64,000 nt of DNA from an uncultured Pseudomonadales bacterium (GTDB lineage: Bacteria; Patescibacteriota; Microgenomatia; UBA1400; PJMF01), in contig CAZKVV010000002.1 of the NCBI GenBank assembly GCA_964556485.1, forward strand, positions 74,291 through 138,290, read 5' to 3'. The first letter of the stretch is position 1. Each line of letters starts with the position of its first letter. Below, one piece after another: positions 8,405-42,796 of this stretch. Made by a program: the position numbers and the translations under genes. Below the pieces are notes generated by a model. The model was not told the DNA's origin. It searched no databases and saw only the letters and a program-made list of their open reading frames with translations.

Positions 8405-8481
8405 TCTTGCTTTATCTATATCTTGGAAATACTATACTACAAAATCAGTTTGATGATGGGTTAGTAAAGATAGTTGTGATT

Positions 8482-11404: not shown

Positions 11405-11408
11405 AACT

Positions 11409-25399: not shown

Positions 25400-25745
25400 G
25401 TTTATTTTTTTCTAACTTCTCAAGTCTAGTAACTAATGCTTTTCTTCGCACAAATTGTTCTATCTTTTTTTCAAGTATCTTGATTTTGAAGTAACTAAAA
25501 AATAACACGACTGAAAGAATCATGAAGGCAATGACTACGAGGAGATCAAAAACTCTAGCAAAGTTAAGTAATCCTGTGATGCCTAAGAGAAGATGCGGAA
25601 AAAGCGCGATTACAATAAAAAGTATCCAGACAGAAATCCATGCCCACGTTTCAATTTTTGTTAAATTTTGTTTTTTATGATGAATGGTAACGACATAAAT
25701 CATGAAAAGTGCAAAAAATGCTGAAGCTATTTGAAATACGGTCAT
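25392..25745 (-). CDS. Small 3-4 TM membrane protein with charged C-terminal tail (DUF2304/GtrA-like; candidate polyprenyl-P-sugar flippase partner)
   Basis: 117 aa, sandwiched between two DPM1-like GT2 genes and overlapping both (8-nt and 4-nt overlaps). Confidence 0.45.
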   Translation of the reverse strand: MTVFQIASAFFALFMIYVVTIHHKKQNLTKIETWAWISVWILFIVIALFPHLLLGITGLLNFARVFDLLVVIAFMILSVVLFFSYFKIKILEKKIEQFVRRKALVTRLEKLEKNKHE

Positions 25746-26431
25746 AATGTTAACCTCCAGATTACCACACTCTGCATGAAATCAAGAGTATTAAGAATGG
25801 TCATTCCCTTGTCATAATCATGGTAAATAGTATCAATTGTTACTACACCAAAAGGGATTTTAAAACGGGAAACTCTGCAGGCAATTTCCATTTCAACTTG
25901 GTATCCCGGTGAAACCCAAAGTATTTTTTTTAGTACTGACTTTTTGAATGCTTTATATCCAGACGGAATATCTGGAATTAATGGTCCACCAAAAAATACT
26001 TTCACAACAACTGAAGCAAAATAATTAGTGACTCGTTTAACTAATGGCATAGTTGCATCGAGTGCTCTAACACCAAACACTACATCGTATCCTTCAGACA
26101 ATTTCTTTTCAAAAAGATGTAGTTCTTCCGGTGAGTGCTGATCGTCAGCATCCATGACAATCACTGCCTCTGCCCCACAATATTCAAACGCATATTCGCA
26201 ACCAGTTTTGAGTGCAGCTCCTTTGCCTAAGTTAATTTCATGAGAGAGAACATGCTTGGTATATTTGGATGCAATGAGTGCAGTATTATCTATAGAACCA
26301 TCATCAACAAAAATGACATGTTTTGTTTTTTTAACAACTTTTTCGAGCACTCTTGCTATGTAGGTTGATTCATTGTAGCCAGGAATCACAACCCAAATTG
26401 AGTCATCTAGTGTCATGTAGTTTTTTTCCAC
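25742..26431 (-). CDS. Short GT2 polyprenyl-phosphate glycosyltransferase (DPM1/GtrB-like)
   Basis: 229 aa. IWVVIPGYNES ... IFVDDGSIDNT ... GKGAALKTG ... VMDADDQHSPEE ... VVFGVR. Confidence 0.75.
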   Translation of the reverse strand: MEKNYMTLDDSIWVVIPGYNESTYIARVLEKVVKKTKHVIFVDDGSIDNTALIASKYTKHVLSHEINLGKGAALKTGCEYAFEYCGAEAVIVMDADDQHSPEELHLFEKKLSEGYDVVFGVRALDATMPLVKRVTNYFASVVVKVFFGGPLIPDIPSGYKAFKKSVLKKILWVSPGYQVEMEIACRVSRFKIPFGVVTIDTIYHDYDKGMTILNTLDFMQSVVIWRLTL

Positions 26432-27339
26432 AGATCTACAAAGTAGCGAACAGTTTCAGCAATGCCATCTTCTAGTGAAATTTCTGCTTTCCAGCCCATT
26501 TGTTCATGAGCTTTCTGAGCGCTTGCATACAGCTGACGAGGGTCTCCAGGTCTATCTGGATGATTGACTACACGAGCTTTCTTGCCTAAGCATTTTTCGA
26601 TAGCAGAAACGAGGTCTAAAACTGAAGCAGGTTTTTCAGTTGAGAGATTGAAGTAATGGTATTTACTTTGATGCTCTGAAGAAAAAGAAATTGCAGAAAG
26701 ATGACCAGCCACTATGTCTCGGATATGAATGTAATCTCGAAGATGGCCCCCATTTCCCCAAACGGTTACTTCTTGATCGGAATAAATCTGTTCTATAAAT
26801 CGGGGTAGTGCATGTGTTTCAGGTTCATGATGCTCTTCTGGGCCATACAAATTGAAATATCTGAGTGCGACTCCAGTCATTCCAAAAGAAGCTACATACG
26901 ATGAGATCAAGCCTTCCATTGCAAGTTTGGTCATGCCATAGGGATTAATTGGCAAGGTTCGATCATCTTCTGTAATGGGAATGGTTTTTGGTTCACCATA
27001 TATTGCTGCACTTGAAGAAAAAATGAATGTAGGAACATTATTCTTTCTCATAGCTTCAAGTACTGAGACTGTGCCACTAATGTTGTAATCAACAAATTTT
27101 TGTGGAAACTTCACTGATTCACCTGCTTCTATCAGTGATGCTAAGTGAAAAACTAAATCAACATCTTTAATTTCAGCTTCCATCTTTTCTGCATCACGAA
27201 CGTCAGAAATAATCGTTGGAAATTCTTTACTCTCACGTAAATCAATGTTTTTAACTGAGTGCCCTTGCTCTACTAACGCCCTGAGCAAGTGAGTGCCTAA
27301 AAACCCTGAACCACCAGTAACTAGTATTCGTTTTTGCAT
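26413..27339 (-). CDS. UDP-hexose 4-epimerase-like extended SDR (GalE family)
   Basis: RILVTGGSGFLGTHL; YGMTKLAMEGL catalytic YxxxK. Confidence 0.75.
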   Translation of the reverse strand: MQKRILVTGGSGFLGTHLLRALVEQGHSVKNIDLRESKEFPTIISDVRDAEKMEAEIKDVDLVFHLASLIEAGESVKFPQKFVDYNISGTVSVLEAMRKNNVPTFIFSSSAAIYGEPKTIPITEDDRTLPINPYGMTKLAMEGLISSYVASFGMTGVALRYFNLYGPEEHHEPETHALPRFIEQIYSDQEVTVWGNGGHLRDYIHIRDIVAGHLSAISFSSEHQSKYHYFNLSTEKPASVLDLVSAIEKCLGKKARVVNHPDRPGDPRQLYASAQKAHEQMGWKAEISLEDGIAETVRYFVDLWKKTT

Positions 27340-27348: not shown

Positions 27349-28542
27349 TTATGCTACCCAATATCCTTGAACAAACAGTATCGTGTTAATGACAAGTAGT
27401 ATACCCGAAATAGCTAACCATATAATCGGCCAAATTTTTTTCTTGGATAGTTGTAATGATAGGTAGATAAATACTGGAAAGCATGCCAGTACATATCTTG
27501 GAATACTTGAGAAAGAACCGGTGAGTGTTGGAATAAGTACTGCTAAAAGTGAAAAGACTAGGTAAGACGCTCTTACCTTATTTCTACTCATTACTAATAC
27601 GGTTGTAGTAGCGACAAATAACAGAAGATCTTGGAAATATGAAAAGTATTTCCAATCAAATGGTCTATATGTTAGTAAAATGCGGATTTGTCTATAGATT
27701 ACCTGTGGAAGGACAACGATGCTTTCTTGTCTTCCAGCTCCAAATTCAGATTGAACATGAAAAAAATAGAGTGGATCTGAAAAGGTGAAGTGCAGATAAC
27801 CCATATAGATAATCAGCCCACTTGAACTGAGTACCAGCAACAAAAGTTTTTCTTTTTTTTCATACATTTTAATAAGTACTTTTTTAAGTCCAGCTATAGT
27901 GAACTGCGCTTTAGAAATAATTTTTTCTTGAAGTAACAGTTCAATAAATAATGCAGGTACAAGTGCTATGCCTACAACTTTGGTAGCACTAGCTAAACCA
28001 GCAAATATAACGGCTAGTAACCATCTCTTTTTTCGTGCAAACAAAAAACTACTTACTACTAAAAATAAGAAAAGTGATTCAGCGTACACTGCAGCAAAGT
28101 ACAATGACGTTGGGAATAGTAAAACTGCTACACAAACAAGTTTAAAATCGATAGTATAACCATCAGTTATAGCTAGCTTATGCAAAATAAACAGAAAGAG
28201 CCCAAGAAAACAAAGTGAAAGCAACTGGCCAACCAAAATAGGTGAGATTATATTGAAGGAAAAAACCAAAATTAACACTGGGTATAAAGGGAAAAATGCT
28301 TGTATTAATGCAGTACCAACATACCCCCTTTTAACAATTGTGAGGTAATGGACGCCATCGAAATTGGCAAATGAATAAATTGACTTGGGTAAACCTGAGC
28401 TTTTAAGTAGATCATTTGAATAGGGAAAACTTGGTTGATAGAGTAACACAGAATCACTAGCTATAGTTATAGTGTGTAATGCAATTCGCCAAAAAAATAC
28501 TATTGCTACAAAGCTTAAAAAAATTAAAATGTTTTTTTTCAT
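27349..28542 (-). CDS. Polytopic membrane protein, GT-C-like (PIG-V/DUF2029-type candidate)
   Basis: The internal start MKKNILIFL (1-nt overlap with upstream stop) is preferred over the track start at 28602. About 11 TM. First loop FANFDGVHYLTIVKRGY. Confidence 0.4.
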   Translation of the reverse strand: MKKNILIFLSFVAIVFFWRIALHTITIASDSVLLYQPSFPYSNDLLKSSGLPKSIYSFANFDGVHYLTIVKRGYVGTALIQAFFPLYPVLILVFSFNIISPILVGQLLSLCFLGLFLFILHKLAITDGYTIDFKLVCVAVLLFPTSLYFAAVYAESLFLFLVVSSFLFARKKRWLLAVIFAGLASATKVVGIALVPALFIELLLQEKIISKAQFTIAGLKKVLIKMYEKKEKLLLLVLSSSGLIIYMGYLHFTFSDPLYFFHVQSEFGAGRQESIVVLPQVIYRQIRILLTYRPFDWKYFSYFQDLLLFVATTTVLVMSRNKVRASYLVFSLLAVLIPTLTGSFSSIPRYVLACFPVFIYLSLQLSKKKIWPIIWLAISGILLVINTILFVQGYWVA

Positions 28543-30182
28543 TAACTCTGTTTTTGTACTTTCCTCTTTGATACAAGTACCATCATACCAAGTGCAATAC
28601 ATCCTAAGATACTGAGACTATTACCTATCACTCTAGGCATGGTTTTTTGTGTAAATATGGTTGTTACGCTATGTTTTCCTGGCACTAATCTAAAAGCTAA
28701 CCTGCCTTCAATTATCTCATCGTCTGTATATACCATCTTTTCGCCATTCGCGGTTGTTTCCCAGCCAGGAAATAGCATGACTGGTTCAACAATCGTAACC
28801 TCAGTTTGAGATTCAACAGTATATTCATGTTTTATAGTAGTCCAAAAGTTTGTAGAAATAGTTCCATCGCCCTCAATAATTCGAGCTGAAGGTTGCCAAT
28901 CACCAATTCCTAAATAGGTGAAATTAGATGGTACGTTTTCATTCTGAGTTGATGTGCTTTGTGTGTAAGCGTCATAATCGATTGTTGATTTATGAAAATA
29001 ATCTACAGGCTTAATGTTTAGTACGGAATAGATAGCTACGAACATTAGAAGAATGAACAGAAGTCTGGCATATTTTTGTAAACTAACACCAACGTGAGCA
29101 GCTACTGGAAGTAGGAACACAAAAAAAACCAGTGAAAGTCTCCAAGGAAACTGGATGAATCTGAGAATGGGTACTAGTTTCCAAATCAGTGCCGACATTT
29201 CAATCTGCAAAAAAATAAGAAACACACTGATTGTAATGAAATAGTGCAGACTGTGCTCTGTGTACTGTTTTTTTATAACTACATACCCAATTGAAATTGC
29301 AATAAGAATGAAAGGGATCCAACCAATGCTTAAACCTAGCGAATCAATCATGCCAGAGTATGAAAATCCAAATGAGAGAGGAGCAAACAGCAACTGTTGC
29401 ATGGTGGCAAAATGATCGGTAATTGCTGATTGGTTAGCACTGCGTGTTACTACCGTTGCGGATGCCTCAAATACTGCTGGCAGCCAAAACCAAGCAGAAA
29501 GGATGAATGCCCAGAAAAGCATGATACTAAATCTCAGTATCGCGACTTTATTTTTACCAAAGGTTCCAATTCCTAACAGTATGAGCAGTGGTGTTACCAC
29601 GAGCACTGTAGAGTTGTGAGAAAGAAAAAAGAGTGTCCAGAAAATGACTTGAGAGACAAATGTTCGAGCGGTAATTTTTGATTGTAAAAGTATTTGAATA
29701 CTTCTGAGCAACCATGGAAGTAAACTGTAGGCAAAAATTTCACCAATGCTCCCTCGATAATACATCGTGGTGAGGATAAACGGATTTGTAAACCACAGTA
29801 ATACGACTATTCCTTGAGCAGTCAGTGAGTCACCATACTTTTTAGTACATAATAGTGCTCCAAAGCTTCCCCAGAGCAAACTAAGAAGTACTAGTATCTT
29901 AAAGGTAGTTTCGTAGTTAATTTTAGCTAAACTAAAAGGCAAAGATAAAAGAGATGGTAGTGGGTAGTTGTAATTGAAAACTGGATACCCATACCTATTA
30001 AAAAGCGTCGGTGCGATTCTAGGGGGAAACTGCCCTTCTTTTAGTGCTAATTTATAATTTGCAAATCGAGCTAAGTGATTTTCTCCATCATGAGTAAAAG
30101 GAATACCTTCATGAAAGTACAATCTACCCACAAAAAGCGTTAACAACAGTGCAAACAATGAAATGAGTATCCGATTTTTCAT
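28542..30182 (-). CDS. Polytopic membrane protein of uncharacterised HD-x-H-x-AR / GQFP / GYP-F family (paralog 1 of 3)
   Basis: 546 aa. N-terminal loop FTHDGENHLARFANYKLALKEGQFPPRI...YGYPVFNYNYPLP is conserved in 36828..38540 and 53852..55624. It has more than 10 TM plus a C-terminal ~150-aa soluble beta-rich domain and a final TM. Confidence 0.5.
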   Translation of the reverse strand: MKNRILISLFALLLTLFVGRLYFHEGIPFTHDGENHLARFANYKLALKEGQFPPRIAPTLFNRYGYPVFNYNYPLPSLLSLPFSLAKINYETTFKILVLLSLLWGSFGALLCTKKYGDSLTAQGIVVLLWFTNPFILTTMYYRGSIGEIFAYSLLPWLLRSIQILLQSKITARTFVSQVIFWTLFFLSHNSTVLVVTPLLILLGIGTFGKNKVAILRFSIMLFWAFILSAWFWLPAVFEASATVVTRSANQSAITDHFATMQQLLFAPLSFGFSYSGMIDSLGLSIGWIPFILIAISIGYVVIKKQYTEHSLHYFITISVFLIFLQIEMSALIWKLVPILRFIQFPWRLSLVFFVFLLPVAAHVGVSLQKYARLLFILLMFVAIYSVLNIKPVDYFHKSTIDYDAYTQSTSTQNENVPSNFTYLGIGDWQPSARIIEGDGTISTNFWTTIKHEYTVESQTEVTIVEPVMLFPGWETTANGEKMVYTDDEIIEGRLAFRLVPGKHSVTTIFTQKTMPRVIGNSLSILGCIALGMMVLVSKRKVQKQS

Positions 30183-31240
30183 TTGTGTACTACTGACTTG
30201 TATACATCAACAGTCTTACTTGCAGCTTTCTCCCATGAAAAAGTTTTTTCCCAAGCACTGGCATGACGAATAAACTCGAGTCTCTTGGTTTTAGACCACA
30301 TCAAAACGGATTCAACTGCTAATGCAAATGCTTCAGCATTTGGTTCTGTGAGTAGAGCAGCTGTACCGGCAACTTCAGGTAAAGATCCGCCATTGCTTGA
30401 TATAACAACTGTTTTACATCTCATTGCCTCAAGAATTGGTAATCCAAAACCTTCATACAATGAAGGTTGCACGTAACACAGAGCCCCAGTGTAAAGTGCC
30501 GACAGTTCTTTGGTTGAATCAACTAAGATATCTGTGAGGAAATGTACTCGCTGTTCTACATTGGATAATGCCATCTGTTTTTCAATCCACTGCCATTCTG
30601 GAATTGGTTGTGGAAAGAAATGTTTTCCTACACATACCAAATGCACGGGTTCAGGCAAAAACTTCATCATTTTTATAAGTTGGGGAATATTTTTATTGTA
30701 GTTTATATCACCTACATATAAAACGTAATTTTCAGGCAATGAATGAAATTTTTTAACCTCAATGACGATATCTTTTGGTTGTGGTGCTAATGCATCAGTA
30801 GCAGCTAATGGTACGACATGAATTTTATCTGGTTTTATTTTCAGATAGGTTGAGATATCTTTTTTTGAACATTCAGAATCTGTAATCAATGCATCTGCAC
30901 GTGACAATGCTACTCTTTGTCGATAAAACGCAAGCGATCCTTTCATTCCCGGCTTGTACTCTTCTGGATACAATAAAGGAATAACATCATGAACGGTAAC
31001 TATGGTTTTACCTTTAGATATGAAAGGTAGACTGTTAAAGAATAAATCGAAAAAGGGATAATGTGTGATGTCTATGTGAGGATGTTCATTTTTTTCTAAA
31101 ATGCTTGATCTATACACTAATAGATCGGGTGTTTGTTCAAGCTCAGTAAGCAAGTTTCGTGTGTAGCTGCCTACTCCACGTATAACATGACCTGATCCTA
31201 ACGGACGTGTATCTAACAAGACGGTGAGTAACTTAGACAT
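30179..31240 (-). CDS. GT4-family glycosyltransferase
   Basis: C-terminal CYVQPSLYEGFGLPILEAMRCKTVVISSNGGSLPEV. Confidence 0.8.
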   Translation of the reverse strand: MSKLLTVLLDTRPLGSGHVIRGVGSYTRNLLTELEQTPDLLVYRSSILEKNEHPHIDITHYPFFDLFFNSLPFISKGKTIVTVHDVIPLLYPEEYKPGMKGSLAFYRQRVALSRADALITDSECSKKDISTYLKIKPDKIHVVPLAATDALAPQPKDIVIEVKKFHSLPENYVLYVGDINYNKNIPQLIKMMKFLPEPVHLVCVGKHFFPQPIPEWQWIEKQMALSNVEQRVHFLTDILVDSTKELSALYTGALCYVQPSLYEGFGLPILEAMRCKTVVISSNGGSLPEVAGTAALLTEPNAEAFALAVESVLMWSKTKRLEFIRHASAWEKTFSWEKAASKTVDVYKSVVHK

Positions 31241-32006
31241 GATTTTGTAACTCCCAAAGCTTCAAAAAGGCAACTGGATGATGTAATCCACTCATCACTG
31301 CAAAAACAAAACCTGGTATACCATCATAAAAGCCTTTATGCCTTAAAAAAAGCTTAAAGAAGGTCATTACTGGTTTGTATATGCAGAGGGAAAATCCAAG
31401 AAAAATGGTTGGTTTTATTTTCTTTTTCGACATTTCTATTGCCGTAAATGTGGTGTAGGTATTAAATTTTCTAATATAATCAGAAAAAGTTGGATTGCTG
31501 TAATGAATGATATGACCTTTAACTGTACTAACTGGACCAGTCGCAGTCATTTGTTCATGCACATCTTTTTGTGGAAGTGCAGCTTTACCATTTCTATATA
31601 AACGAATGACCATATCAGGATACTGGCCACCTTTTGTTAAAAAAGCTCCTAAAAAATAATTCTTCCTTGGAATCCACCAAGCACTGATTTCTTGATTAAC
31701 GTCAACTTTATTTTGCTCAATTGAAACGATATATTTTGCAAGTTCATCATCAACAACTTCATCTGCATCAAGCTGAAGAACCAGATCACCCTTTGCAGCA
31801 TCCATAGCTATTTGTTTATTGATATGAAAATTTGATTTATTGGTTGTAACAATAATTTTTGCACCAAATTCTTTTGCAATACTCACGGTTCTATCTGTTG
31901 ATTCTCCATCTACAACAATAATTTCATCTGCAATCTTTGCAATTGATTGTAAACACTTACTGAGATTTAATTCCTCATTATGAACCGCAAGCACAACTGA
32001 TAACAT
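31233..32006 (-). CDS. GT2-family glycosyltransferase
   Basis: LSVVLAVHNEE ... IIVVDGESTDRT ... LQLDADEVV. It is related to 49678..50517 and 51460..52356. Confidence 0.75.
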   Translation of the reverse strand: MLSVVLAVHNEELNLSKCLQSIAKIADEIIVVDGESTDRTVSIAKEFGAKIIVTTNKSNFHINKQIAMDAAKGDLVLQLDADEVVDDELAKYIVSIEQNKVDVNQEISAWWIPRKNYFLGAFLTKGGQYPDMVIRLYRNGKAALPQKDVHEQMTATGPVSTVKGHIIHYSNPTFSDYIRKFNTYTTFTAIEMSKKKIKPTIFLGFSLCIYKPVMTFFKLFLRHKGFYDGIPGFVFAVMSGLHHPVAFLKLWELQNHV

Positions 32007-32008: not shown

Positions 32009-33586
32009 TTATTCCTTAATTTCCCAGTAGTTATCTTCCCATGATATCAATGTTTTCTCAACGGTACTTCTATCTGATTCTTTACCGATAAAATGAAAAC
32101 GATCTACTCTTTCACCATATCTAAATCCAATCCGATCGGGATTTTGTTTAATTATTGTTTGATAAAAAACATCTGGTGGTAACTGTAGATACCAAGCAAC
32201 TAACACATAGTGATACCCACCAACGTCTACAAATGCAATTTGTTCATCTGGGCGCTGCTCAACATTCTCTAAAGTACTCTTTAAACCGCCTTGGTATAAA
32301 GATCGCATTTGTTCAGGATATTTGGTGAAATATGTGTAAATATAGCTACTAAAAATGAGGATTGTGCTACTCAGAAATAATGTGGAAAGCATGAGCACGC
32401 TTTGTGAATTCTTAATTTTGCTAACTGCCAATTGTAATCCTCTTGTACCCACTAGTATCAATACAAAAAAGAAAAACAGACTTCGAGTTGTGTGTGGTGA
32501 ATCGACAGTGATACTTGCCGGGAGCAAACTAATTACCACCAATGCTAATAAAACTAAATCAGACTTCACTATCTTAAACTCTAGCTTCTTTTTTTGGATT
32601 AGTTTTATTCCAACTTCATAGATTAAACTAACAATACCAAGCATGCTGAAAAGGTACGCAGGTAACAAAAGATTTCCCCAATTGGGTAGTGTATGCCAAG
32701 GGTGTGATCCACCTCTAATAACAACAAAAGTTGGATCAAAACTTTTTACTAATGATTGAAGAATTAATCCTCCAAAATAGACATACTTATTTCCGATAAT
32801 TGGTTGTAATGCAGTAGGTAAAGAAAGCCGGTATTCGATCAAATTGGTATTTGTTAATTCGTCACTAAAAATAGTTATTGAGCTTTTTTGAGCAGTAAGT
32901 GAAGAAAGTATTGTGAAAAAAAAGATAGCCGCACCTGTATATAAACTTAGAGTAATGATCCATCTCTTCCAGTTTTTTATTCCATGCCAAAACACTAAAA
33001 CAACACTGATAAATGGAATATAGAGAAGTGGTGTGTTGTAGGTGGCACATGCCGCAAACATACAAAGACCAGCAAGTACTTGGAACCACCATTTTTGTTT
33101 GGAGATATATGCAAAATAGATTGAAACAACTAATAGTGCTAATCCAACATTAGCTTCAAATGCAATTCTGGAGTAGAAAAAAAACACTGGAGTGGTAGCT
33201 ATGAGAAAACTAAAAAGTAGTTGCCACTTTTTTTCTAACTTAAAATTTCCTGCAAAATAATACCCAGCAATAATCAGAATCATTCCTGCAACTGCTGATG
33301 GGAGTCTAACGACAGCATCACTTACACCAAAAATGCTGAAAAATGCTGTTAAAAGAAGTGGATATCCCAGTAATTTGTAATCTCCGAATGATTCCAATGC
33401 CATTGGCCACTTTCTTCCCCACTCATCCATCCCTACTTCTTTGAGTAAGTATCCGTTATATGCCAAAGCTGCTTCATCTCGATTGAGAATACTTTCAACA
33501 CCAAAATCCAACCAAACAAACCTCAAAATAATTGCAATACAACAAACACTTAGCAGGAAAATTTGATAGATCTTATTCATATGCAT
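32009..33586 (-). CDS. ArnT/PMT-like GT-C glycosyltransferase (GT39/GT83-type), SFGDYKLP subfamily
   Basis: First loop NRDEAALAYNGY (DE motif) ... ESFGDYKLLGYP ... VRLPSAVAGM. About 12 TM plus C-terminal soluble domain. Confidence 0.7.
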   Translation of the reverse strand: MHMNKIYQIFLLSVCCIAIILRFVWLDFGVESILNRDEAALAYNGYLLKEVGMDEWGRKWPMALESFGDYKLLGYPLLLTAFFSIFGVSDAVVRLPSAVAGMILIIAGYYFAGNFKLEKKWQLLFSFLIATTPVFFFYSRIAFEANVGLALLVVSIYFAYISKQKWWFQVLAGLCMFAACATYNTPLLYIPFISVVLVFWHGIKNWKRWIITLSLYTGAAIFFFTILSSLTAQKSSITIFSDELTNTNLIEYRLSLPTALQPIIGNKYVYFGGLILQSLVKSFDPTFVVIRGGSHPWHTLPNWGNLLLPAYLFSMLGIVSLIYEVGIKLIQKKKLEFKIVKSDLVLLALVVISLLPASITVDSPHTTRSLFFFFVLILVGTRGLQLAVSKIKNSQSVLMLSTLFLSSTILIFSSYIYTYFTKYPEQMRSLYQGGLKSTLENVEQRPDEQIAFVDVGGYHYVLVAWYLQLPPDVFYQTIIKQNPDRIGFRYGERVDRFHFIGKESDRSTVEKTLISWEDNYWEIKE

Positions 33587-35249
33587 ATAAAGCGTATCCT
33601 AAGTTGGGATAACTCTCAATTTCTTTTAATGACTCCTCAGAAAAAACTGATTTTACATAGCCAGGTTCACCTAAGAGTACCGAAAACTGCTTATCTCTCC
33701 TTAATGTATCTGCATTAAAGTGGATGTTTCCCATTTCTTGAGAGATTGGCATTCTACTATAAACCGTACCTGTGGTATTGAATTGTTTGACTTCATCTGC
33801 TGAGTACTCATACAGCAACAACCATAAGTACACTCGAGTATCAGGTGGATGAGCATACACAGCTTGATGCGATTTGCTGAGTTGGGCAACTAGTTGAGCG
33901 AAATCTGGGTATTCGCTTTGCCAAAAGACCTGACTCTTTTCAGGGTAGATCTTATCGTAGTGATGTAGAAATTGTGTAAAGAAAAAACTGCTAACCAGTA
34001 CTAATCCTATACCCAAAGCGGCACCAACGAGTTTATATTTGAATGATTCACAAAAAATAAGTATCTGATACGTGCCTATACCTATGATACTACTCAGAGG
34101 TACTAGAGCAAACAGTGAGCGTTGGGCATTTGGAACATCAAGTGGTATTGAGGCTGGTAGTATTCCAACAATTACCCATGTGAGCAAAAATAAGCCAAGT
34201 TTTTTTGATTTTGAAAACAGCCATGACATTCCTACTAACAATGGCAACAGCATTGTTAGGTTGAACAATCCTGATACTCCTGACCCGTGTCTCATGTTGC
34301 TATCACCGGTGAAAAAAAGGTAACGAGGATCAAGATGAGAAAAAACATTTTCTAGTAATTGCCTCAAGATAAATACACGTCGATTAAATAAAATGCTATC
34401 CAATTTAGAGGTAGCAACTGTTTGTACCTCATTTGCAGTTTGTACAAAAGTTGTAATATCTAGAACTGAATCTGTACTCATGCGAACAATTTGACTTGAT
34501 GTAAAGTGTTCAGAAAAATACATTGGTACAAGTGCTACATAAAAAAGCAAAAGCACACCTACTGCAGTTCCAATGCTGCTCATTATTTGTTTTAGCGACT
34601 TATTGCTTACTTCCAAAATACACAGCATCATAAAGATCACTGACCAAATATATTGTGCTGCATAGTAGGTATATGATGCGGCTATACCAAAAAAAAGCGC
34701 AACAGCATACCAATATGCTTGTTTGCGTATAAACCCTTGTAAGAGAGATGCTATTGAAATCAATACCAATGCTTGAGCAAGCATACTTTCAAATCCAACT
34801 AATGAAAAGTGAAATGCCCAAGGTGAGATACCAACCACAAATGCAGTCGATACCATCAGTTTCAGTCTATGAAGTTTAGGAGTTTGAGAGCCATATCTTT
34901 TTGTAATGACAAATGTAAGATATGCAGTTAGACAGATTGTTAGTAATCCTGATACTAAGCTCGGAATACGAACGAGCCAATCATATTCAGGTAACAATCG
35001 GTATAAGAAACTGACGATAATAATCAGACCTGGAAGTTTATAGTCTCCATAGGATGGATACAGTGGCTGTAACCAATGATTTCCATGAATATCATGGCCA
35101 AAATGAGCTACTGATCGAGCATCGACTGCAATTGCAACTTCATCCCAATATAAGGAGAGATTTTGACTGGAAAAAAATGCAACCCTAGCGATAATGCTCA
35201 CAAACAAAAGTAATGACACAACTACCCAGATAGAATGTTTGTAAAACAT
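33573..35249 (-). CDS. ArnT/PMT-like GT-C glycosyltransferase, SFGDYKLP subfamily
   Basis: YWDEVAIAVDAR ... PSYGDYKLPGL ... VRIPSLVSGLL. Confidence 0.7.
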   Translation of the reverse strand: MFYKHSIWVVVSLLLFVSIIARVAFFSSQNLSLYWDEVAIAVDARSVAHFGHDIHGNHWLQPLYPSYGDYKLPGLIIIVSFLYRLLPEYDWLVRIPSLVSGLLTICLTAYLTFVITKRYGSQTPKLHRLKLMVSTAFVVGISPWAFHFSLVGFESMLAQALVLISIASLLQGFIRKQAYWYAVALFFGIAASYTYYAAQYIWSVIFMMLCILEVSNKSLKQIMSSIGTAVGVLLLFYVALVPMYFSEHFTSSQIVRMSTDSVLDITTFVQTANEVQTVATSKLDSILFNRRVFILRQLLENVFSHLDPRYLFFTGDSNMRHGSGVSGLFNLTMLLPLLVGMSWLFSKSKKLGLFLLTWVIVGILPASIPLDVPNAQRSLFALVPLSSIIGIGTYQILIFCESFKYKLVGAALGIGLVLVSSFFFTQFLHHYDKIYPEKSQVFWQSEYPDFAQLVAQLSKSHQAVYAHPPDTRVYLWLLLYEYSADEVKQFNTTGTVYSRMPISQEMGNIHFNADTLRRDKQFSVLLGEPGYVKSVFSEESLKEIESYPNLGYALYAYE

Positions 35250-35255
35250 AGTGAA

Positions 35256-35261
35256 AGTATA
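35256..35261 (-). promoter_or_regulatory. Candidate -10 hexamer (TATACT) 6 nt upstream of ATG of 33573..35249
   Basis: Minus-strand sequence reads TATACT-ttcact-ATG. Confidence 0.3.
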
Positions 35262-35275
35262 ACCTATTTCCTGTG

Positions 35276-35281
35276 TATAAT
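35276..35281 (+). promoter_or_regulatory. Candidate -10 hexamer (TATAAT) 9 nt upstream of ATG 35291
   Basis: Plus-strand sequence reads tgtgTATAAT-ggagttacc-ATG. Confidence 0.3.
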
Positions 35282-35290
35282 GGAGTTACC

Positions 35291-36823
35291 ATGAAACTTC
35301 GATGGCTTGTGTTACTTATTGCAATTTTTTCACTCAGTTTTAGATTTTGGTTTTATGCAACTCACATTGTCGTTAATAATGACACTTTAAGAGATGCTCA
35401 GATTGTGGAAGAACTTTCCAGATCTAATACATTTTTCCCAGCTTATGGACCTAAGGCAAGTGTGGGAAATTTTTATTTACCTCCTTTGTACTATCAGATT
35501 CATCTTATTTTTTCTGTTGTTACCAACCATCATCCTTTGACAATGAATATCATCAATACTTTCATTGAAGCGCTGACACCCGTGTTACTGTTTCTACTTT
35601 TGTATGCAGCAGTAGAAAAAAAATTTGCTTTTGTGCTTTCACTCTTATATATAGTTGCACCACTACCTGTTATTTTTGGAACTAGAGCTTGGAACCCTAT
35701 CACTATTCCATTTTTTACTACACTAGCTTTGTTACTGTTTCTTGAGTATTTCAAAAATAAAACTGCTCAATTAATCCCTCTGATGACTCTGTCTATCGCT
35801 GTTGCCCTGCAACTTCATTATCAAACAGTAGTAGTCATTCCATTCTATTTTGGTGTTTTCTGTTGGAGCTTTTTAAAGAGAAAAGATGATAGAAAGTATT
35901 GGTTATTGGGCATTCTGCTTAGTTTGGCTACATTTATACCGTACTTTTGGGGTGAGTTCCACAATAATTGGAAAAACAGCATGGCAATGTATTCCTATTT
36001 TTTTGGAGAACATGCAAATTACTATGATAGAGTTTCAAAACCTGAATACCTTTTAACATTTTTACCTAGTTTTTTTGAAAGAATTCTGACAAATACAGTT
36101 CAGCCATCAATGTGGCTGGGCAGATTATTGATGATTACTGCAGTTGTTGGTTCTGCTCTAGCTGTAAAAAAACGGAAACAAAGTTTCAAAAAAATGGGAA
36201 TTTTATTGTTGTATGTAGCTAGTATATTTTTTGCCCTCAGAATGTATAAAGGCGACAAAATTGATTACTACATGAGTACCTTATTTATTGCACCAATTTT
36301 GTTTTTGGCAGTACTTTCACACATCAATGCAAAAGTTGCATGGGTGTTAACAGGACTGCTTATATTTGTAGCCGCAAGTGCATCTACATCCATCCCACAC
36401 TTTAATTCCTATCAAGATTTAAAAGTTGCGGTGCAAGACTTATCACAAAATTCAAGCAATGAAGGGTATAGATTTTTGTTTTATGATTTGAGACATGCTA
36501 ATACCATAAGTTACATTTTGTATAAAAATCCTGAGATACGTATCAATCAAAAGAGTAGTATGTTAGTCGAAGTTTTTGAATCAAATGCTACAGTACCAGA
36601 CTGGATTGACACCTGTGAGTCGAATGAAAAAGCAGCATCTTCTAATGGGTCATTTCCGGTTTTTAAATGCACCTATGAATATCAAGTACTGTCAGAAATT
36701 AAAAAATATTCTGATATGAGCTTTCAGTTTGGAAAGGTGAATGAGAAAGCTCGTGATATTGAAACGAAACATAGTGTTGATTCATCCCATGGTACGGATA
36801 TACTGCTAACAGAACTTTTTTAA
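35291..36823 (+). CDS. Polytopic membrane protein, GT-C-like candidate
   Basis: The track start at 35273 is GTG; the first ATG (MKLRWLVLL) is at 35291. About 12 TM, loop DTLRDAQIVEEL, C-terminal ~130-aa soluble domain. Confidence 0.4.
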   Translation: MKLRWLVLLIAIFSLSFRFWFYATHIVVNNDTLRDAQIVEELSRSNTFFPAYGPKASVGNFYLPPLYYQIHLIFSVVTNHHPLTMNIINTFIEALTPVLLFLLLYAAVEKKFAFVLSLLYIVAPLPVIFGTRAWNPITIPFFTTLALLLFLEYFKNKTAQLIPLMTLSIAVALQLHYQTVVVIPFYFGVFCWSFLKRKDDRKYWLLGILLSLATFIPYFWGEFHNNWKNSMAMYSYFFGEHANYYDRVSKPEYLLTFLPSFFERILTNTVQPSMWLGRLLMITAVVGSALAVKKRKQSFKKMGILLLYVASIFFALRMYKGDKIDYYMSTLFIAPILFLAVLSHINAKVAWVLTGLLIFVAASASTSIPHFNSYQDLKVAVQDLSQNSSNEGYRFLFYDLRHANTISYILYKNPEIRINQKSSMLVEVFESNATVPDWIDTCESNEKAASSNGSFPVFKCTYEYQVLSEIKKYSDMSFQFGKVNEKARDIETKHSVDSSHGTDILLTELF

Positions 36824-36827
36824 AAAT

Positions 36828-38540
36828 ATGAGAATCAACAAACATTTTTTCAATGCTTTTAGAAAACATATCATTTATATCGTTTTGATTTTAGTTGCAG
36901 CAGTCATGGGATCACTGCCATTACTGCACAGTGGACTTTATACTGCTCACGATATCTGGCATCAGGTGGCTAGGCTGTATCATTATTCAGAAGCAGTTTC
37001 GGATGGCCAATTTTTTCCAACCTGGATTAGCACCCTGTCCCAAGGTCATGGATATCCACTCTTTCTTTTTTCGTACCATTTTCCATGGATACTCGGAACT
37101 CCTTTAGTATTGATGGGGGCAAGTATTGAATTTGCCTTAAAGTTTCTTTTCTTTGTTGCATATCTTGCTTCCGGTTGGGCGATGTATGCATTAGCTTGGC
37201 ACATAACAAAAAATAAAACGGCTTCACTTGGAAGTGCTGTCTTGTACTTATTTGCTCCATATCACTTCTTAACAATGTATGTCAGTGCTGCTATTGGTAC
37301 ACAGTTTCAGTTTGCAATCTTACCACTGCTCTTTTTGGGAGCTGCTTGGATTTTGGACAAAAGGCCTAGATGGGGTTTTATTCTTTTAAGTATTTCAATT
37401 GCCACAGGAATTCTCACTCACCTCATAACCTTTGCATACTTTATGCTGGCATTGCTGCTGTATATTGCATTTATACTCTCGACCACGCACATTGCGGCTA
37501 ACAGAAAGCGGAAAATAGTTGCGTTGCTTTTTTTAAGTTTATTTCTTGGTATCTTGCTCTCAAGCTTCTATTTAGTTCCATTTGTTGCATACAAAAATGA
37601 AATCATTGCTTCTCTACCTGGAAATGGTTTTACAGATATATATAAAAGTAATTTTGCATCACTCCGTCAACTCATTTACTCAAAATGGGGGTTTGGCCCA
37701 ATAATTAGTAATGCTAAAGATGGTGAAATATCGTTACAAATTGGTATTGCACAATGGCTCGGTGCATTTTTTGCAACATTGCTTGTAATTACTTCAATGA
37801 TTTTTCGTAAAAAATTTAAAAATGAAAATGTGTTCTTTTTGTCTTTATTTGGACTAAGCATATTTGGAATGCTTAGCATATCCGAACCTCTTTGGAGTTT
37901 TGTAACTAAAATTGTTTCGTTTGATTATCCTTTTAGACTTTTGTTGATTAGTGTATTTTCTGGTTCACTGTTAGCTGCCTTTGTTATTACTTCAGTAAAA
38001 AAGTATAAACTCTTTTTATATGGTGCTTGTGGCTTTTTCATTATGATTGCGATGTACACAAATAGAAACCATATTAAGGTTAACTTATATACTGATGTTC
38101 CGCTCGATTTGTATGTAAGGTCTGAAACTACAACAAACACCTTTCATGAATATTTGCCGCTGGGTGCTAGTTCTCAGTTACTTTCAAAAGATGCGCAGTC
38201 TGTTGCAATTTCAGAGAATAAAACTTCAGTTCCAATTGTAAGTAATCTTGCACAAACAACTAACTCACTATTTTTTGATGTAGAAATCGCTACACCATCA
38301 GCCATTTCAATTAGTCAATTCTCTTTTCCTGGACAACGACTGTATGTTAACAAAAAATTTGTGGAACATAGTGTTGATGGCAGCGGTAGAATACAAACAA
38401 GTTTAACTGAAGGAAGACACAGTGTTCTCGTACAATATGAAGACACTACGCCAATATTATTTGGAAAAGTCTTAACAGTACTTGGAATGGTTTTTTTAGT
38501 AAGGTTTTACATTGCGGAAAGCAGAAAAGATGAAAAATAA
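36828..38540 (+). CDS. Polytopic membrane protein of HD-x-H-x-AR / GQFP / GYP-F family (paralog 2 of 3)
   Basis: TAHDIWHQVARLYHYSEAVSDGQFFPTWI ... HGYPLFLFSYHFP. Same architecture as 28542..30182. Confidence 0.5.
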   Translation: MRINKHFFNAFRKHIIYIVLILVAAVMGSLPLLHSGLYTAHDIWHQVARLYHYSEAVSDGQFFPTWISTLSQGHGYPLFLFSYHFPWILGTPLVLMGASIEFALKFLFFVAYLASGWAMYALAWHITKNKTASLGSAVLYLFAPYHFLTMYVSAAIGTQFQFAILPLLFLGAAWILDKRPRWGFILLSISIATGILTHLITFAYFMLALLLYIAFILSTTHIAANRKRKIVALLFLSLFLGILLSSFYLVPFVAYKNEIIASLPGNGFTDIYKSNFASLRQLIYSKWGFGPIISNAKDGEISLQIGIAQWLGAFFATLLVITSMIFRKKFKNENVFFLSLFGLSIFGMLSISEPLWSFVTKIVSFDYPFRLLLISVFSGSLLAAFVITSVKKYKLFLYGACGFFIMIAMYTNRNHIKVNLYTDVPLDLYVRSETTTNTFHEYLPLGASSQLLSKDAQSVAISENKTSVPIVSNLAQTTNSLFFDVEIATPSAISISQFSFPGQRLYVNKKFVEHSVDGSGRIQTSLTEGRHSVLVQYEDTTPILFGKVLTVLGMVFLVRFYIAESRKDEK

Positions 38541-39264
38541 AGATCAGAAAGTTATTGCTGTAATGCCTGCATATAATGCAGCCAGAACTCTCAAAAAAAC
38601 GGTAGCAGATATTCCAGCAAATACCGTTGATAAGGTTATTCTTGTTGACGATCATAGTTCAGATGAAACCGTTAAGGTTGCAAAAGAACTGAACTTAACT
38701 GTTGTTACTCATCCACAAAATAGAGGCTACGGTGGTAATCAAAAAACATGTTACACGCTAGCCCTTTCTGAAGGTGCTGATGTAGTCGTTATGATTCATC
38801 CTGATTATCAATATGATAGTTCATTAACTGCTGAGATGGTTAAACCTATTTTAGAAGGTAAATGCGATGTTATGCTGGGTTCTCGCATACGAACAAGAGC
38901 TGAAGCACTTGCTGGCGGCATGCCAAAATATAAGTACATTGGTAATCGTTTTTTAACGTTAGTTGAAAATACTGTGCTTGGCCAAAATTTATCTGAGTAT
39001 CACACTGGGTTTAGAGCATTTAGTAAAAAATCATTAGAAAATTTGCCGTTTCACACCTATTCTGACGATTTTGTTTTTGATTCTCAAATATTATTTGGTT
39101 GTATTGCAAATAATGAAAGAATTGGTGAAATCTCAGTTCCAGTTAGATACTTTGAGGAAGCATCATCAATCAATTTCTGGAGAAGTTGTATTTACGGCTT
39201 AACAATCTTAAGAGATTTATTGATTTATTCAGTTACAGGTGGTAAATACTTCATTAAACATTAA
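38530..39264 (+). CDS. Short GT2 polyprenyl-phosphate glycosyltransferase (DPM1-like)
   Basis: The track start at 38512 is TTG; the ATG at 38530 is preferred. KVIAVMPAYNAARTL ... ILVDDHSSDET ... GYGGNQKTCY ... DVMLGSR. Confidence 0.75.
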   Translation: MKNKDQKVIAVMPAYNAARTLKKTVADIPANTVDKVILVDDHSSDETVKVAKELNLTVVTHPQNRGYGGNQKTCYTLALSEGADVVVMIHPDYQYDSSLTAEMVKPILEGKCDVMLGSRIRTRAEALAGGMPKYKYIGNRFLTLVENTVLGQNLSEYHTGFRAFSKKSLENLPFHTYSDDFVFDSQILFGCIANNERIGEISVPVRYFEEASSINFWRSCIYGLTILRDLLIYSVTGGKYFIKH

Positions 39265-40970
39265 TTATCGCTACAACTGCTTTCAGTAAGCAATGAGTGT
39301 GAATCATAGACATACACATAGGTATGTACTCCGTTTGACGCTTTTCCTTGGTAGAGCTGGTTAGCTTGTTCTATCTTTTGATCAGTCACATAGACCGATT
39401 CTTGATTATTCTGCTGTGCTTTACAACCCACTGCTTCTAAGGATTCACTAGAAGCCGTCACTCTTCCCAATTCGACAGTGTGTTGAAAGCCTGAACTTTC
39501 TAACTCACCTAACTTTGCAAGTTGTTGGTATTGTTTTGGCGGTAGCTTAGTATAAAAAGCATAAAACATAATAGGGTCAGAATAAAAAGGTTTGAAGTGG
39601 ATCTGAGTTGACTCAGGCAGGGTTTGTAAGTATGAATGCAGATCTGGAAGGTACGATTGATAATAATATTCATTTTTTGTGGTATGAACCGCAAAGTACT
39701 CGGTGAAATACAAAACACTGTAGCCAGCAAGAATAAGAGATAGAGATATAAGCAATAGATTTCTCATTCTCTTGTGCGCGAACTCTAACACTATTTTTAT
39801 ACCAAATATGATCACAATTAAGACAAAGGGATACCACATTGAAAGTCGGACTTTTTGTGGATCTCCAGAGAGAATTGTAGGAATTGGTGATAGCAGTAAA
39901 CCAATTAAAACTACCAGTCTTTGGTGAGTGGACATGTTTTTTCCAACCATGAAAAGTCCAACTAACCCAATGACAAAAAAAGGATACACAATTGGGTAAA
40001 ATTGACCAAATCCATCTTGTGATAAGAAAATGAGATCATCTTCACCAGATGAGACTAAGTAATTTGGTGAAAAAGCAGCAAGGTATCTCTGTGTAAGCAT
40101 CCGGGAAACGAGCACTGGTTTATTCCAGACGGCATCGCAGAGAAGTCTGGGATACTGCATATCACAAAAGGTTCTACTTTCATCAATTTTGAGCACAAGA
40201 CCTGGATCTGAAAAGATACCTACTTGATGTAATCTGGTGCCGTTTACACCGATGACGCTAGGTGCAAAAAATGGTACGATCAGCGAGAGAAAACTGAACA
40301 AAAACACTGCAAGATGTTCTCTCTTTATTTTTTCAATAAAAAACAGCCAAAGTAGTCCAAAAATCCAAAGTAAGGCAGTGATTGGTCGGTAAGCGATGTA
40401 GCTATACCAGGTAAGTGATAAAGCAACACCAGACAACAAGAACCAATACCAGTTCCTTTGTCGAACTGCTCTAAAATAGGAAGCTAAACCTACTAGAAGA
40501 CAAAAGAGAGCTATGTTTGATTCAAAACCAAATCGACTTAGGAAAAATGGCCAAGGGCTGAGAGCTGTAATCAATGCACCAAGGGTGCTCAGTTTCTTGC
40601 CAAATGAAAACTCTCTGAGCAACCAATACGATGCTAGTATTGATGCAACACCAATGAGAAGTGATGGCACTCTTATTGCAAAAATACTCAGACCCCAAAG
40701 AGCGACGGGAAGAATATCAAGGTATGCCATTGCAGGTAATTTTTGATCACCAAAGCCTTTAAAAATGAGTGGCCATTTTTGGTTGTGCTCGTCTGCCCCC
40801 GTTTGCAACAGTGACTGAGCTATATATCCAAAATGGAGCTCATCTATCAGTGCCCCCTTAGGGGCTCTATCTATCTGCCAGATTCTCACACAAAATCCCA
40901 GCACTACTATTAACAGTAGCACGAGGATGGGATACAATGATTTGAGTGTCGTTTTTGTATATTTTTTCAT
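39261..40970 (-). CDS. ArnT/PMT-like GT-C glycosyltransferase, SFGDYKLP subfamily
   Basis: The track start at 41012 is TTG; the ATG (MKKYTKTTL) is at 40970. LIDELHFGYIAQ ... KGFGDQKLPAMAY ... IRVPSLLIGV. Confidence 0.7.
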   Translation of the reverse strand: MKKYTKTTLKSLYPILVLLLIVVLGFCVRIWQIDRAPKGALIDELHFGYIAQSLLQTGADEHNQKWPLIFKGFGDQKLPAMAYLDILPVALWGLSIFAIRVPSLLIGVASILASYWLLREFSFGKKLSTLGALITALSPWPFFLSRFGFESNIALFCLLVGLASYFRAVRQRNWYWFLLSGVALSLTWYSYIAYRPITALLWIFGLLWLFFIEKIKREHLAVFLFSFLSLIVPFFAPSVIGVNGTRLHQVGIFSDPGLVLKIDESRTFCDMQYPRLLCDAVWNKPVLVSRMLTQRYLAAFSPNYLVSSGEDDLIFLSQDGFGQFYPIVYPFFVIGLVGLFMVGKNMSTHQRLVVLIGLLLSPIPTILSGDPQKVRLSMWYPFVLIVIIFGIKIVLEFAHKRMRNLLLISLSLILAGYSVLYFTEYFAVHTTKNEYYYQSYLPDLHSYLQTLPESTQIHFKPFYSDPIMFYAFYTKLPPKQYQQLAKLGELESSGFQHTVELGRVTASSESLEAVGCKAQQNNQESVYVTDQKIEQANQLYQGKASNGVHTYVYVYDSHSLLTESSCSDN

Positions 40971-40991
40971 TTTAAACGTCTCTTCTATCAG

Positions 40992-40997
40992 TATTAT
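40992..40997 (+). promoter_or_regulatory. Candidate -10 hexamer (TATTAT) 5 nt upstream of ATG 41003
   Basis: Plus-strand sequence reads TATTAT-cacat-ATG. Confidence 0.25.
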
Positions 40998-41002
40998 CAC
41001 AT

Positions 41003-42796
41003 ATGCACACAAAGAAAAACATAACTTTTTTACTACTGCTCTTTTTTTTCATTCTAACTAGCAGACTTTATAAAATATCCAGTGTTCCCAGCGTTATTAG
41101 TCATGATGAAAATTATTATCCAGTGCAAGCAAAAACAATTGCTGTAGCATTTACCGATCCGTCTGGCACTTGGAATCCTCTTAGCCTTACTGCTGCTAAT
41201 CCGCTCTATGCTGAATTGCCGGGTTTGATTATGGCACCCGCGAGTGCATTCTCCAATCCACTACTTGCTGCAAGATTTACTCATGCATTACTTGGTAGTT
41301 TGTTGGTTTTAGTTTTGGCTGGTATCGCTCACACTGTCACCAAGAATCGAATATTTTTCTTGTCAGTCTATCTGATTGGTTTCCTTAACCCTTGGCTTTT
41401 TCAATTTTCACGAATGAACTTTGATGCCCTTTTTAGTCTCTTTTTCTACTTTACAGGAATTTTTCTATTCCTGCAAAAATCACCCCAAATTAAATTACTT
41501 TCAGTTTTCTTTTTCTTAGTTGGCTTCTTCCAATATCAGGGACTCAAAATTGTACTTTTGCCACTGACTGTAGTTCTGTTACTTTTTGAATACGCTTGGC
41601 AAAGTAGTATTAAAAAGCGTTCTATTAGCAACTTTTACCCTAATATTGCTTTGGGTTTAGGTGTGGTTCTAGTTACTGTATATTTTTTGTTAACCTTATC
41701 TGGACAAAGTGCGAGCAGCAGAGCAAGTGATACCATTTTTTCTGACCCCACTATTGCTGCTCAAGTACAAGTGCAGCGACAACAAACTATTGTTAACCCA
41801 GTAGTGCAACTATTTAATAACAAGTTCACCGTTGTAGGTCAAACTTTTCTGAGCAACTATCTTGCTAGTTTTAATATCAATCAACTTTTTAATACTGGTG
41901 AATCGCTACGGAATCCTTTTTCAGTGTGGTCAAAAGGTATGTTTTATCCACTCGATTTAGTTTTGATTGTAGTAGGTTTCTTTGCTCTCTATTCTGTTAA
42001 AAAAACTAGACCATTTGCCATTATGTTGTTATTACTTATTTTGATCGCACCTCTACCATCTGCAATTAATGCAAAAGGATTATGGATCATGTTTAGAAGT
42101 AGTTTATATGTGCCAGTTTTCGTTTTGCTTGCTGGTGCAGGAGTATCCTACTTGATTACAAAACACAAATTAATTGCTCTCCTTGTTATGACTATCTATA
42201 TGCTGTTTGTTTCCAGTTTTTTTTATGAATATTTTTTCCGTTATCCAACCATCGGCACATCTGGAAATTATTTTTCAGAAAGGATTGTGGCAAGCTATCT
42301 CAAAAGAAATGCAGGTCTCTCAACAGTTGTTTTAGTTGACGAAAAACAGTTTGTGTACAATGCACTACTGCACTTTAATCAGCTTATCTCACCGGCAACT
42401 TTGGGAGAAATTAAAAAAAGCTATCAGTCAGATACGTATAGTATTGGCAGTATTAGCATTGACAATCGTTGTGTATCAACAACAGAGATTTTATCGGGGA
42501 CAACTGTGATAGCAGCGGCACATATTCCCTTTTGTGTTGAATCACACTCACCGATAGTTGAAGTTGCCCCTTTCACATCGGCCATACAATCACTCATTGA
42601 TAGTGGTGAACAGTTTATCATCTACAATGATCCTTTGTGTAGCAGTTATCAACTTGGTTCCAGTTCACATGTTACAACTGACGTTTTTGCCATTGAATCA
42701 TTATCAGATAAAGAGTTTTGTGAGAACTTTTTTGCACAAACATCGGTGTCAAAACGAATTATCCCAACGGTCATGCAATCAGATTTAGTGATCTAA
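41003..42796 (+). CDS. ArnT/PMT-like GT-C glycosyltransferase (divergent paralog)
   Basis: SHDENYYPVQAK (DE motif) in the first loop. About 12 TM plus a ~170-aa C-terminal soluble domain. Confidence 0.55.
   Translation: MHTKKNITFLLLLFFFILTSRLYKISSVPSVISHDENYYPVQAKTIAVAFTDPSGTWNPLSLTAANPLYAELPGLIMAPASAFSNPLLAARFTHALLGSLLVLVLAGIAHTVTKNRIFFLSVYLIGFLNPWLFQFSRMNFDALFSLFFYFTGIFLFLQKSPQIKLLSVFFFLVGFFQYQGLKIVLLPLTVVLLLFEYAWQSSIKKRSISNFYPNIALGLGVVLVTVYFLLTLSGQSASSRASDTIFSDPTIAAQVQVQRQQTIVNPVVQLFNNKFTVVGQTFLSNYLASFNINQLFNTGESLRNPFSVWSKGMFYPLDLVLIVVGFFALYSVKKTRPFAIMLLLLILIAPLPSAINAKGLWIMFRSSLYVPVFVLLAGAGVSYLITKHKLIALLVMTIYMLFVSSFFYEYFFRYPTIGTSGNYFSERIVASYLKRNAGLSTVVLVDEKQFVYNALLHFNQLISPATLGEIKKSYQSDTYSIGSISIDNRCVSTTEILSGTTVIAAAHIPFCVESHSPIVEVAPFTSAIQSLIDSGEQFIIYNDPLCSSYQLGSSSHVTTDVFAIESLSDKEFCENFFAQTSVSKRIIPTVMQSDLVI

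Follow-up and report, generated by a model that had tools for sequence, protein, structure and literature searches.

Three paralogous PF10131 membrane proteins with a predicted GT-C fold and distinct gene partners in a Patescibacteria glycan island

The DNA analyzed here, a 64,000-nucleotide stretch of contig CAZKVV010000002.1 (assembly GCA_964556485.1, positions 74,291 to 138,290) that is called the window in the following, carries three large open reading frames (ORFs) for related multispanning membrane proteins, designated A, B, and C. Gene A (28542..30182, minus strand) encodes 546 residues and is predicted to specify a GT-C glycosyltransferase of family PF10131 with 12 transmembrane (TM) helices, a C-terminal β-sandwich, and a final TM helix. 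Gene B (36828..38540, plus strand; 570 residues) belongs to the same family and represents a divergent orthogroup, and gene C (53852..55630, minus strand) encodes a PF10131 protein of 592 residues when read from a GTG codon and of 590 residues when read from an ATG at position 55624. The NCBI product, P0121 (590 residues), corresponds to C from this ATG, which lies two codons inside the GTG-started ORF. The three proteins are full-length paralogs: BLASTP aligned them over their entire lengths, with 26% identity between A and B (E of 3e-31), 24% between A and C (1e-25), and 24% between B and C (4e-33). A preliminary description of this DNA had pointed out the same three ORFs, and all of them are present as described, including the N-terminal peptides following the first TM helix (TM1). 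Its ends for A and B are exact; position 55624, given there as the end of C, is the internal ATG, and the GTG-started ORF reaches 55630.

PF10131 (PTPS_related) is the sole Pfam match of A, B, and C, the family that the preliminary description had tentatively named. Relative to the gathering cutoff of 26.4 bits, A (37.8 bits) and C (49.1 bits) score above and B (23.5 bits) just below; many B orthologs are annotated with PF10131 in precomputed records, and 20 of the 40 members of one alignment of the family (A1) match it at an E value of ≤1e-3. PF10131 is a member of the Pfam GT-C clan CL0111, its function being described as unknown (PMC7801869). The Pfam scan gave no match of A, B, or C at an E value of ≤1 to PF09586 (YfhO), a family that had been named for checking; in some C-type orthologs precomputed PF09586 matches occur beside those to PF10131. 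A search of NCBIfam yielded no match for any of the three proteins. The soluble 6-pyruvoyl-tetrahydropterin synthase domain was likewise without a match in the Pfam scan of A, B, and C, and identity with this enzyme was rejected, as only PF10131 matches and the model of A described below is an all-membrane GT-C fold with a β-sandwich. The PTPS in the family name is, in our own reading, historical.

Directly after TM1, the three proteins share a block of the form H-D-x2-3-[HQ]-x-A-R ... GQ[FI]P ... G[YM]P-x-F. In A, it occupies residues 31 to 76 of the first extracytoplasmic loop (29955..30092, minus strand) and reads HDGENHLAR (A31-39)...GQFP...GYPVFNYNYPLP, D32 and R39 being invariant. The corresponding segments are residues 41 to 86 of B (36948..37085, plus strand), with HDIWHQVAR (B41-49)...GQFF...GYPLFLFSYHFP, and residues 35 to 79 of C (55394..55528, minus strand), with HDFVHGAR (C35-42)...GQIP...GMPLFEFYAPLP. 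A six-frame translation of the 64-kb window contains exactly three matches to the pattern HD-x(2,3)-[HQN]-x-[AVST]-R, one each in A, B, and C. Conservation was determined in an alignment of 467 sequences of relatives, with residues numbered after A. Specifically, D32, R39, and H189 are 100% conserved, G65, P67, P235, P346, and R348 each 99%, H31 and W334 each 98%, and Q263 and Y403 each 97%; R348 is part of a QFPWR segment (residues 344 to 348; 29139..29153, minus strand) at the outer end of TM10. The preliminary description had made its proposal depend on conservation of the motif in homologs from other genomes, and since the core motif is carried by 455 of the 467 relatives, the proposal stands on this point. 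The PF10131 model begins at approximately residues 70 to 85, so that the motif block lies N-terminal to the curated domain; the HD...R block is the most conserved stretch of the family, though it is located outside the Pfam model.

AlphaFold2 was used to model A from an alignment of 118 sequences. The model is of high confidence, with a mean predicted local distance difference test (pLDDT) of 94.8 and a predicted template modeling score (pTM) of 0.94, and shows 12 TM helices; the first outside loop contains two short helices, and a seven-strand β domain occupies approximately residues 434 to 510, after which comes the final TM helix (residues 515 to 545). The architecture anticipated in the preliminary description, i.e., more than 10 TM segments, a C-terminal β-rich domain, and a final TM segment, is borne out for A by the model, and B and C align with A through the C-terminal part in BLASTP. 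For the membrane topology, the helices of the A model were taken as TM segments, and the positive-inside rule was applied to the short loops, which contain 11 lysine or arginine residues in 36 positions on the predicted inside versus 3 in 75 positions on the predicted outside. The topology is N-in/C-in with 12 TM helices and agrees with that of GT-C enzymes, which comprises 8 to 13 TM helices, a cytoplasmic N terminus, and a conserved acidic residue in the first extracytoplasmic loop. Residues H31, D32, H36, R39, R55, R143, E148, H189, E239, H257, Q263, D280, W334, Q344, and R348 are all located in outside loops or in the outer ~10% of a TM helix, D32 being positioned ~9 residues past TM1, at the beginning of the first juxtamembrane helix. 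The His/Asp/Arg cluster is thus placed on the first extracytoplasmic loop by the positive-inside rule, the side that had been supposed for it; of the metal- or phosphate-binding site proposed at the same time, the extracytoplasmic location holds, and binding of metal or phosphate would be a putative property. Other GT-C enzymes, such as PglB (D56) and the PMTs (DE motif), also possess an essential acidic residue in the first outside loop. The mycobacterial arabinofuranosyltransferase AftD needs K39 and D41, located in this same loop (bioRxiv 10.1101/2019.12.22.885152).

Comparison of the A model with GT-C folds, a check suggested in the preliminary description, matched it to GT-C enzymes, the comparison figures being 21.1 for AglB, 20.2 for AftD (459 residues aligned), 19.8 for ALG12, 19.3 for both Pmt4 and STT3B, 19.0 for AftA, 17.7 for ArnT, 16.2 for Pmt2, 15.7 for DPY19, 15.5 for PglB, and 14.8 for AftB. 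According to the model, the membrane domain of A, B, and C is of the GT-C fold, GT-C-A-like, and of YfhO-like architecture. We consider it very probable that the three proteins are GT-C-fold enzymes of PF10131, and the idea of a glycan-transferring GT-C variant, put forward in the preliminary description, is supported by the fold and by the place of PF10131 in the GT-C clan.

The family of closest architectural interest is YfhO (PF09586; B. subtilis YfhO and the streptococcal proteins PgtC2, PgfM1, and PgfM2), which, like PF10131, belongs to the GT-C clan. YfhO has ~12 to 13 TM helices and an extracytoplasmic domain before the last TM helix (PMC5836110), an arrangement that recurs in the A model. 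The outside domain, however, comprises 389 residues in YfhO versus about 125 in the present proteins, and the hosts are Firmicutes for YfhO versus Patescibacteria for A, B, and C. An HD...R motif has not been reported for YfhO, and the study of this protein did not assign its catalytic residues (PMC5836110). AftD (PDB 6wbx and 6w98), also of the GT-C type, is only 11% identical and gives no sequence-level match; it is itself a protein of ~1400 residues with three carbohydrate-binding modules and an acyl carrier protein-binding bundle. With respect to AglB, STT3, and PglB (GT66), the outside domain of A, B, and C is a small β-sandwich with a TM anchor, unlike the C-terminal domain of the oligosaccharyltransferases (OSTs). 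A regular-expression search for a WWD-type motif and the Pfam search for STT3 (PF02516) found neither in A, B, or C, and membership in the OST group (STT3/AglB/PglB) was rejected for lack of a WWDYG motif and of an STT3 match. Enzymes of the ArnT/PMT/GacL type belong to Pfam families other than that of A, B, and C (PMT_2/PMT), and the seven to nine PMT_2-like paralogs of the window give only short, weak matches to the three proteins.

Among the matches listed, orthologs at 40 to 60% identity number at least 533 for A, at least 297 for B, and at least 1214 for C. Almost all stem from metagenome-assembled genomes (MAGs) of Patescibacteria (Pacebacteria/Paceibacterota, Woese-, Gottesman-, Davies-, and Blackburnbacteria), several of the records being mislabeled. 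Note that many public MAG records with these genes, among them those of loci L008 and L006, are titled "Pseudomonadales" or "Gammaproteobacteria," yet their isolate names (e.g., HK-STAS-PATE-16) and gene content suggest Patescibacteria; such titles look like mislabeling in the source records. Since a single 1.41-Mb contig holds one ortholog of each type (P0073, P0320, and P0184), A, B, and C are old orthogroups rather than recent duplicates. When 1.84 billion cluster representatives (50% identity) were searched with a profile of the family, 23,157 matched at an E value of ≤1e-3 and 8,585 at ≤1e-30, and scanning genomes for the peptide [YF]G[MY]P[LV]F[NEQ][FY][YN] confirmed 549 relatives. Four metagenomic proteins (P0361, P0362, P0431, and P0363) are predicted to carry head-to-tail copies of the family, with 2 copies in ~1100 residues, 4 stretches in 1670 residues, and 6 stretches in 3329 residues; they could be real fusions of tandem arrays, as at loci of Woese-, Davies-, and Gottesmanbacteria, or gene-calling read-through.

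Each of the genes A, B, and C overlaps the start of its own, distinct downstream gene; the three are conserved orthogroups with distinct, translationally coupled partners. The partner of A is a second GT-C enzyme (27349..28542, minus strand), which was listed as an ORF of 417 residues (27349..28602, minus strand). Its real start is M21, the stop codon of A and this start sharing the sequence TAATG, and the protein thus has 397 residues. It is without a Pfam match and has a GT-C fold of the PIG-M/ALG3/ALG12/PimE-like kind. In about 10 metagenomic relatives, an A-type protein and the second GT-C protein are naturally fused, which would place two GT-C enzymes in one polypeptide; one such fusion, P0028, has 940 residues. 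In a rather improbable reading, the fused pair would be a two-active-site assembly line making a lipoglycan. Immediately upstream of A lies a GT4 gene (30179..31240, minus strand), a position that it holds in 44/56 loci, and further upstream a GT2 gene (31233..32006, minus strand), both forming a conserved cassette with A. Downstream of the A/GT-C pair follow genes for an NAD-dependent sugar epimerase (26413..27339, minus strand) and a PpgS-like GT2 enzyme (25742..26431, minus strand), and the cassette GT2-GT4-A-GT-C-epimerase-PpgS-like GT2 is kept (39/52 and 44/56 loci). It mirrors the parts list of the Pgf system, i.e., a GT-A enzyme, an epimerase, and two GT-C enzymes, in which PgfS, PgfE, PgfM1, and PgfM2 serve protein O-glycosylation (PMC12041528).

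The partner of B is a GT2 gene (38512..39264, plus strand; ~240 to 245 residues) that overlaps the end of B. The closest resemblances of its product, all at sub-threshold scores, are to AglJ, PpgS, and dolichyl-phosphate hexose transferases, and the pairing with B recalls that of YfhO with the GT2 lipid-sugar synthase CsbB. The B-GT2 pair is kept in 5 of the 6 contexts examined and recurs in L004, L086, L087, and L089, at three of which it is found among housekeeping genes, outside any glycan island; in L088, the GT2 gene adjoins B but is convergent. The B orthogroup, defined as the 36828..38540 product together with P0242-P0360, retains D32, R39, H189, and R348, whereas a number of outward polar residues common to all A- and C-type proteins are lost in it (H36→Q, R55→Y/T, R143→S, E148→I/T, N190→L/I, E239→Y, H257→N, D280→G, and Q344→D). 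Further differences from the A and C types are P74→H, W347→F, and W474→Q, so that QFPWR of A reads DYPFR in B. Judged from the alignment, this coordinated loss suggests a different substrate, be it sugar or acceptor, or a different metal or cofactor requirement of the B orthogroup.

The partner of C encodes a Wzx/MOP-type flippase (Polysacc_synt_3; 52356..53864, minus strand), the start of which overlaps the end of C by 13 nucleotides. Divergently from C runs a gene for a LytR-CpsA-Psr (LCP) ligase, joining glycopolymers to the wall (55677..56807, plus strand), and beside it and C are rmlB, rmlC, and rmlD of the dTDP-rhamnose pathway (57033..59554, plus strand). A 43%-identical C ortholog at locus L005 has the same setting, with the flippase overlap, an LCP gene nearby, and rml-type genes, in this case for a dTDP-sugar isomerase and an epimerase/reductase-type enzyme. 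A Wzx-type flippase is present in 12 and a tandem array of two to four C-like copies in 13 of the 17 C-like loci.

Taken as a whole, the window represents a glycan island that extends over more than 55 kb, with many GT2 and GT4 genes and genes for sugar epimerases, a UDP-sugar dehydrogenase, a UDP-GlcNAc 2-epimerase, methyltransferases, the rml enzymes, and the LCP ligase. Seven mutually homologous PMT_2-like (ArnT/PMT-type) GT-C paralogs, located at 32009, 33573, 39261, 41003, 42785, 44446, and 46106 within 32009..47767, were identified by BLASTP with E values of 1e-18 to 1e-41, and two PMT_2-like singletons are encoded at 8407..10578 and 35273..36823. When A, B, C, and the product of the 27349 gene are added to the PMT_2-like set, the 64 kb encode no fewer than 13 predicted GT-C enzymes. 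Beyond these, two large ORFs with multiple TM segments (2077..3690 and 6662..8392, both minus strand; 537 and 576 residues) have no Pfam match, and aligning the PF10131 alignment to them with hhalign gave weak probabilities of 0.4% and 15%, respectively; they may be additional, unclassified GT-C-like enzymes. Export is represented by three Wzx/MOP-type flippase genes, including the partner of C, and one Wzm/Wzt-type ABC-2 exporter (837..2090, 10625..12152, 12155..13690, and 52356..53864). No initiating phosphoglycosyltransferase was seen among the window ORFs scanned, and as Wzy polymerases, all of these ORFs score below the Pfam cutoff. An ORF of 360 residues (15285..16367, minus strand) gives weak matches to Pec_lyase and to GH127 (β-L-arabinofuranosidase)-like domains; its product may be a glycan-trimming enzyme amid the biosynthetic genes.

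In the three-component scheme of extracytoplasmic glycosylation, a sugar is first loaded onto polyprenyl phosphate by a GT2 enzyme; a flippase then brings the lipid-linked sugar outside, where a GT-C enzyme passes the sugar on to a surface polymer (PMC11127046; PMC5836110). As the parts of the island match this scheme, sugar transfer on the outer face of the membrane is proposed for A, B, and C. On the cytoplasmic face, the island's small GT2 enzymes that resemble PpgS and AglJ would charge a polyprenyl (undecaprenyl-type) phosphate with sugar, a flippase would move the lipid-linked sugar outward, and A, B, and C would each hand the carried sugar over to an outer-face acceptor. The catalytic or acceptor-activating carboxylate would be that of D32, with which the first outside loop begins, and R39, R348, and H189 are the putative ligands of the donor phosphate; the C-terminal β-sandwich may help to bind the glycan acceptor. 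The latter would most likely be a wall-linked, rhamnose-containing glycopolymer that leaves the cell through the ABC or Wzx systems of the island and is joined to the wall by the LCP enzyme. It is probable that the sugar or the acceptor is not the same for all three orthogroups: A would act with the second GT-C enzyme, B would need no partner other than a lipid-sugar synthase of its own, and C would act with the Wzx-type flippase. The proposed role is analogous to that of CsbB/YfhO in lipoteichoic acid glycosylation of Bacillus (PMC5836110) and to side-chain addition by GacI, GacK (a Wzx flippase), and GacL to the group A streptococcal rhamnose polysaccharide, the pathway of which has rml genes and an ABC exporter as well (bioRxiv 10.1101/180810). 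The evidence addressing polyprenyl-linked donor use and outer-face transfer is gene context, namely, the PpgS/AglJ-like GT2 enzymes and the Wzx-type flippases. We favor the full mechanism, i.e., transfer from polyprenyl-phosphate carriers to a glycopolymer, with reasonable rather than strong confidence, donor, acceptor, and residue roles being inferred.

Several observations weigh against these assignments. A full-text search of the available literature by family name and accession led to PMC7801869 and two gene lists and to no experimentally characterized PF10131 member, so that activity, donor, and acceptor of A, B, and C are all inferred. When protein C and the 118-sequence profile were searched against the PDB, neither gave a meaningful match to a solved structure. 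A classical DxD/ExD pair is not conserved in the 467 sequences, which share a single Asp only, and D32 would be the counterpart of the catalytic Asp of other GT-C enzymes by topological position, not by residue superposition. The GT2 neighbors score far below the NCBIfam equivalog cutoffs, and their role as lipid-sugar synthases is therefore one of resemblance only. Finally, as the top structural matches include OSTs, which use pyrophosphate-linked donors, the fold is compatible with either a phosphate- or a pyrophosphate-linked donor.

This last point bears on C-type proteins in particular, which might use pyrophosphate-linked oligosaccharides flipped by Wzx, either for en bloc transfer in the manner of an OST or as a polymerase or ligase replacing the missing Wzy/WaaL. 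Besides the OST-like structural matches, the coupling to Wzx, the frequent tandem arrays, the adjoining LCP ligase, and the lack of a recognizable Wzy in the window speak for such a function. Against it, the proteins have neither a WWDYG motif nor an STT3 profile match and show no likeness to WaaL, Wzy, or SEDS structures, and Wzx-type flippases have been proposed for monophosphate-linked sugars too; we regard it as quite improbable. If true, C-type proteins would be GT-C-A enzymes doing the job of Wzy/WaaL in Patescibacteria. The acceptor, in turn, could be a protein rather than a glycopolymer, with O- (or N- or C-) glycosylation of Ser/Thr-rich regions, pili, or S-layer proteins, as by PMT, PgtC2, or PgfM1. 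The PMT-like structural matches, the analogy of the A cassette to Pgf, and the B pairs outside glycan islands are in line with this; a protein acceptor is plausible, though clearly less probable than a glycopolymer. That A, B, and C are not glycosyltransferases at all, sharing no more than many TM helices with transporters, flippases, or phosphotransferases, is extremely doubtful. YfhO might also flip its lipid-linked donor (Rismondo et al., PMC5836110), and the preliminary description had raised a phosphotransferase; the transporter and phosphotransferase readings were rejected, as no support for either emerged.

For the favored interpretation of A, B, and C as GT-C-fold enzymes acting on the outer face, what was already known is that PF10131 is cataloged in the GT-C clan, and the proposed mechanism is standard for this clan and of no new kind. 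New are the fold assignment, the invariant set of outward-facing residues, which lies partly outside the Pfam model, and the three orthogroups, each with a different partner. Residues H31, D32, R39, H189, and R348, none of which is highlighted in the Pfam annotation, form a set for mutagenesis, and B with its GT2 partner, a module of no more than two genes, lends itself to reconstitution in a heterologous host. PF10131 being a very large family, the locus offers a practical entry to an uncharacterized group of enzymes and to surface glycosylation in Patescibacteria. With no fewer than 13 predicted GT-C enzymes encoded over 64 kb, a large share of a small genome region of the Patescibacteria type is given to extracytoplasmic glycosylation, and this density bears on how Patescibacteria episymbionts build and vary their surface.

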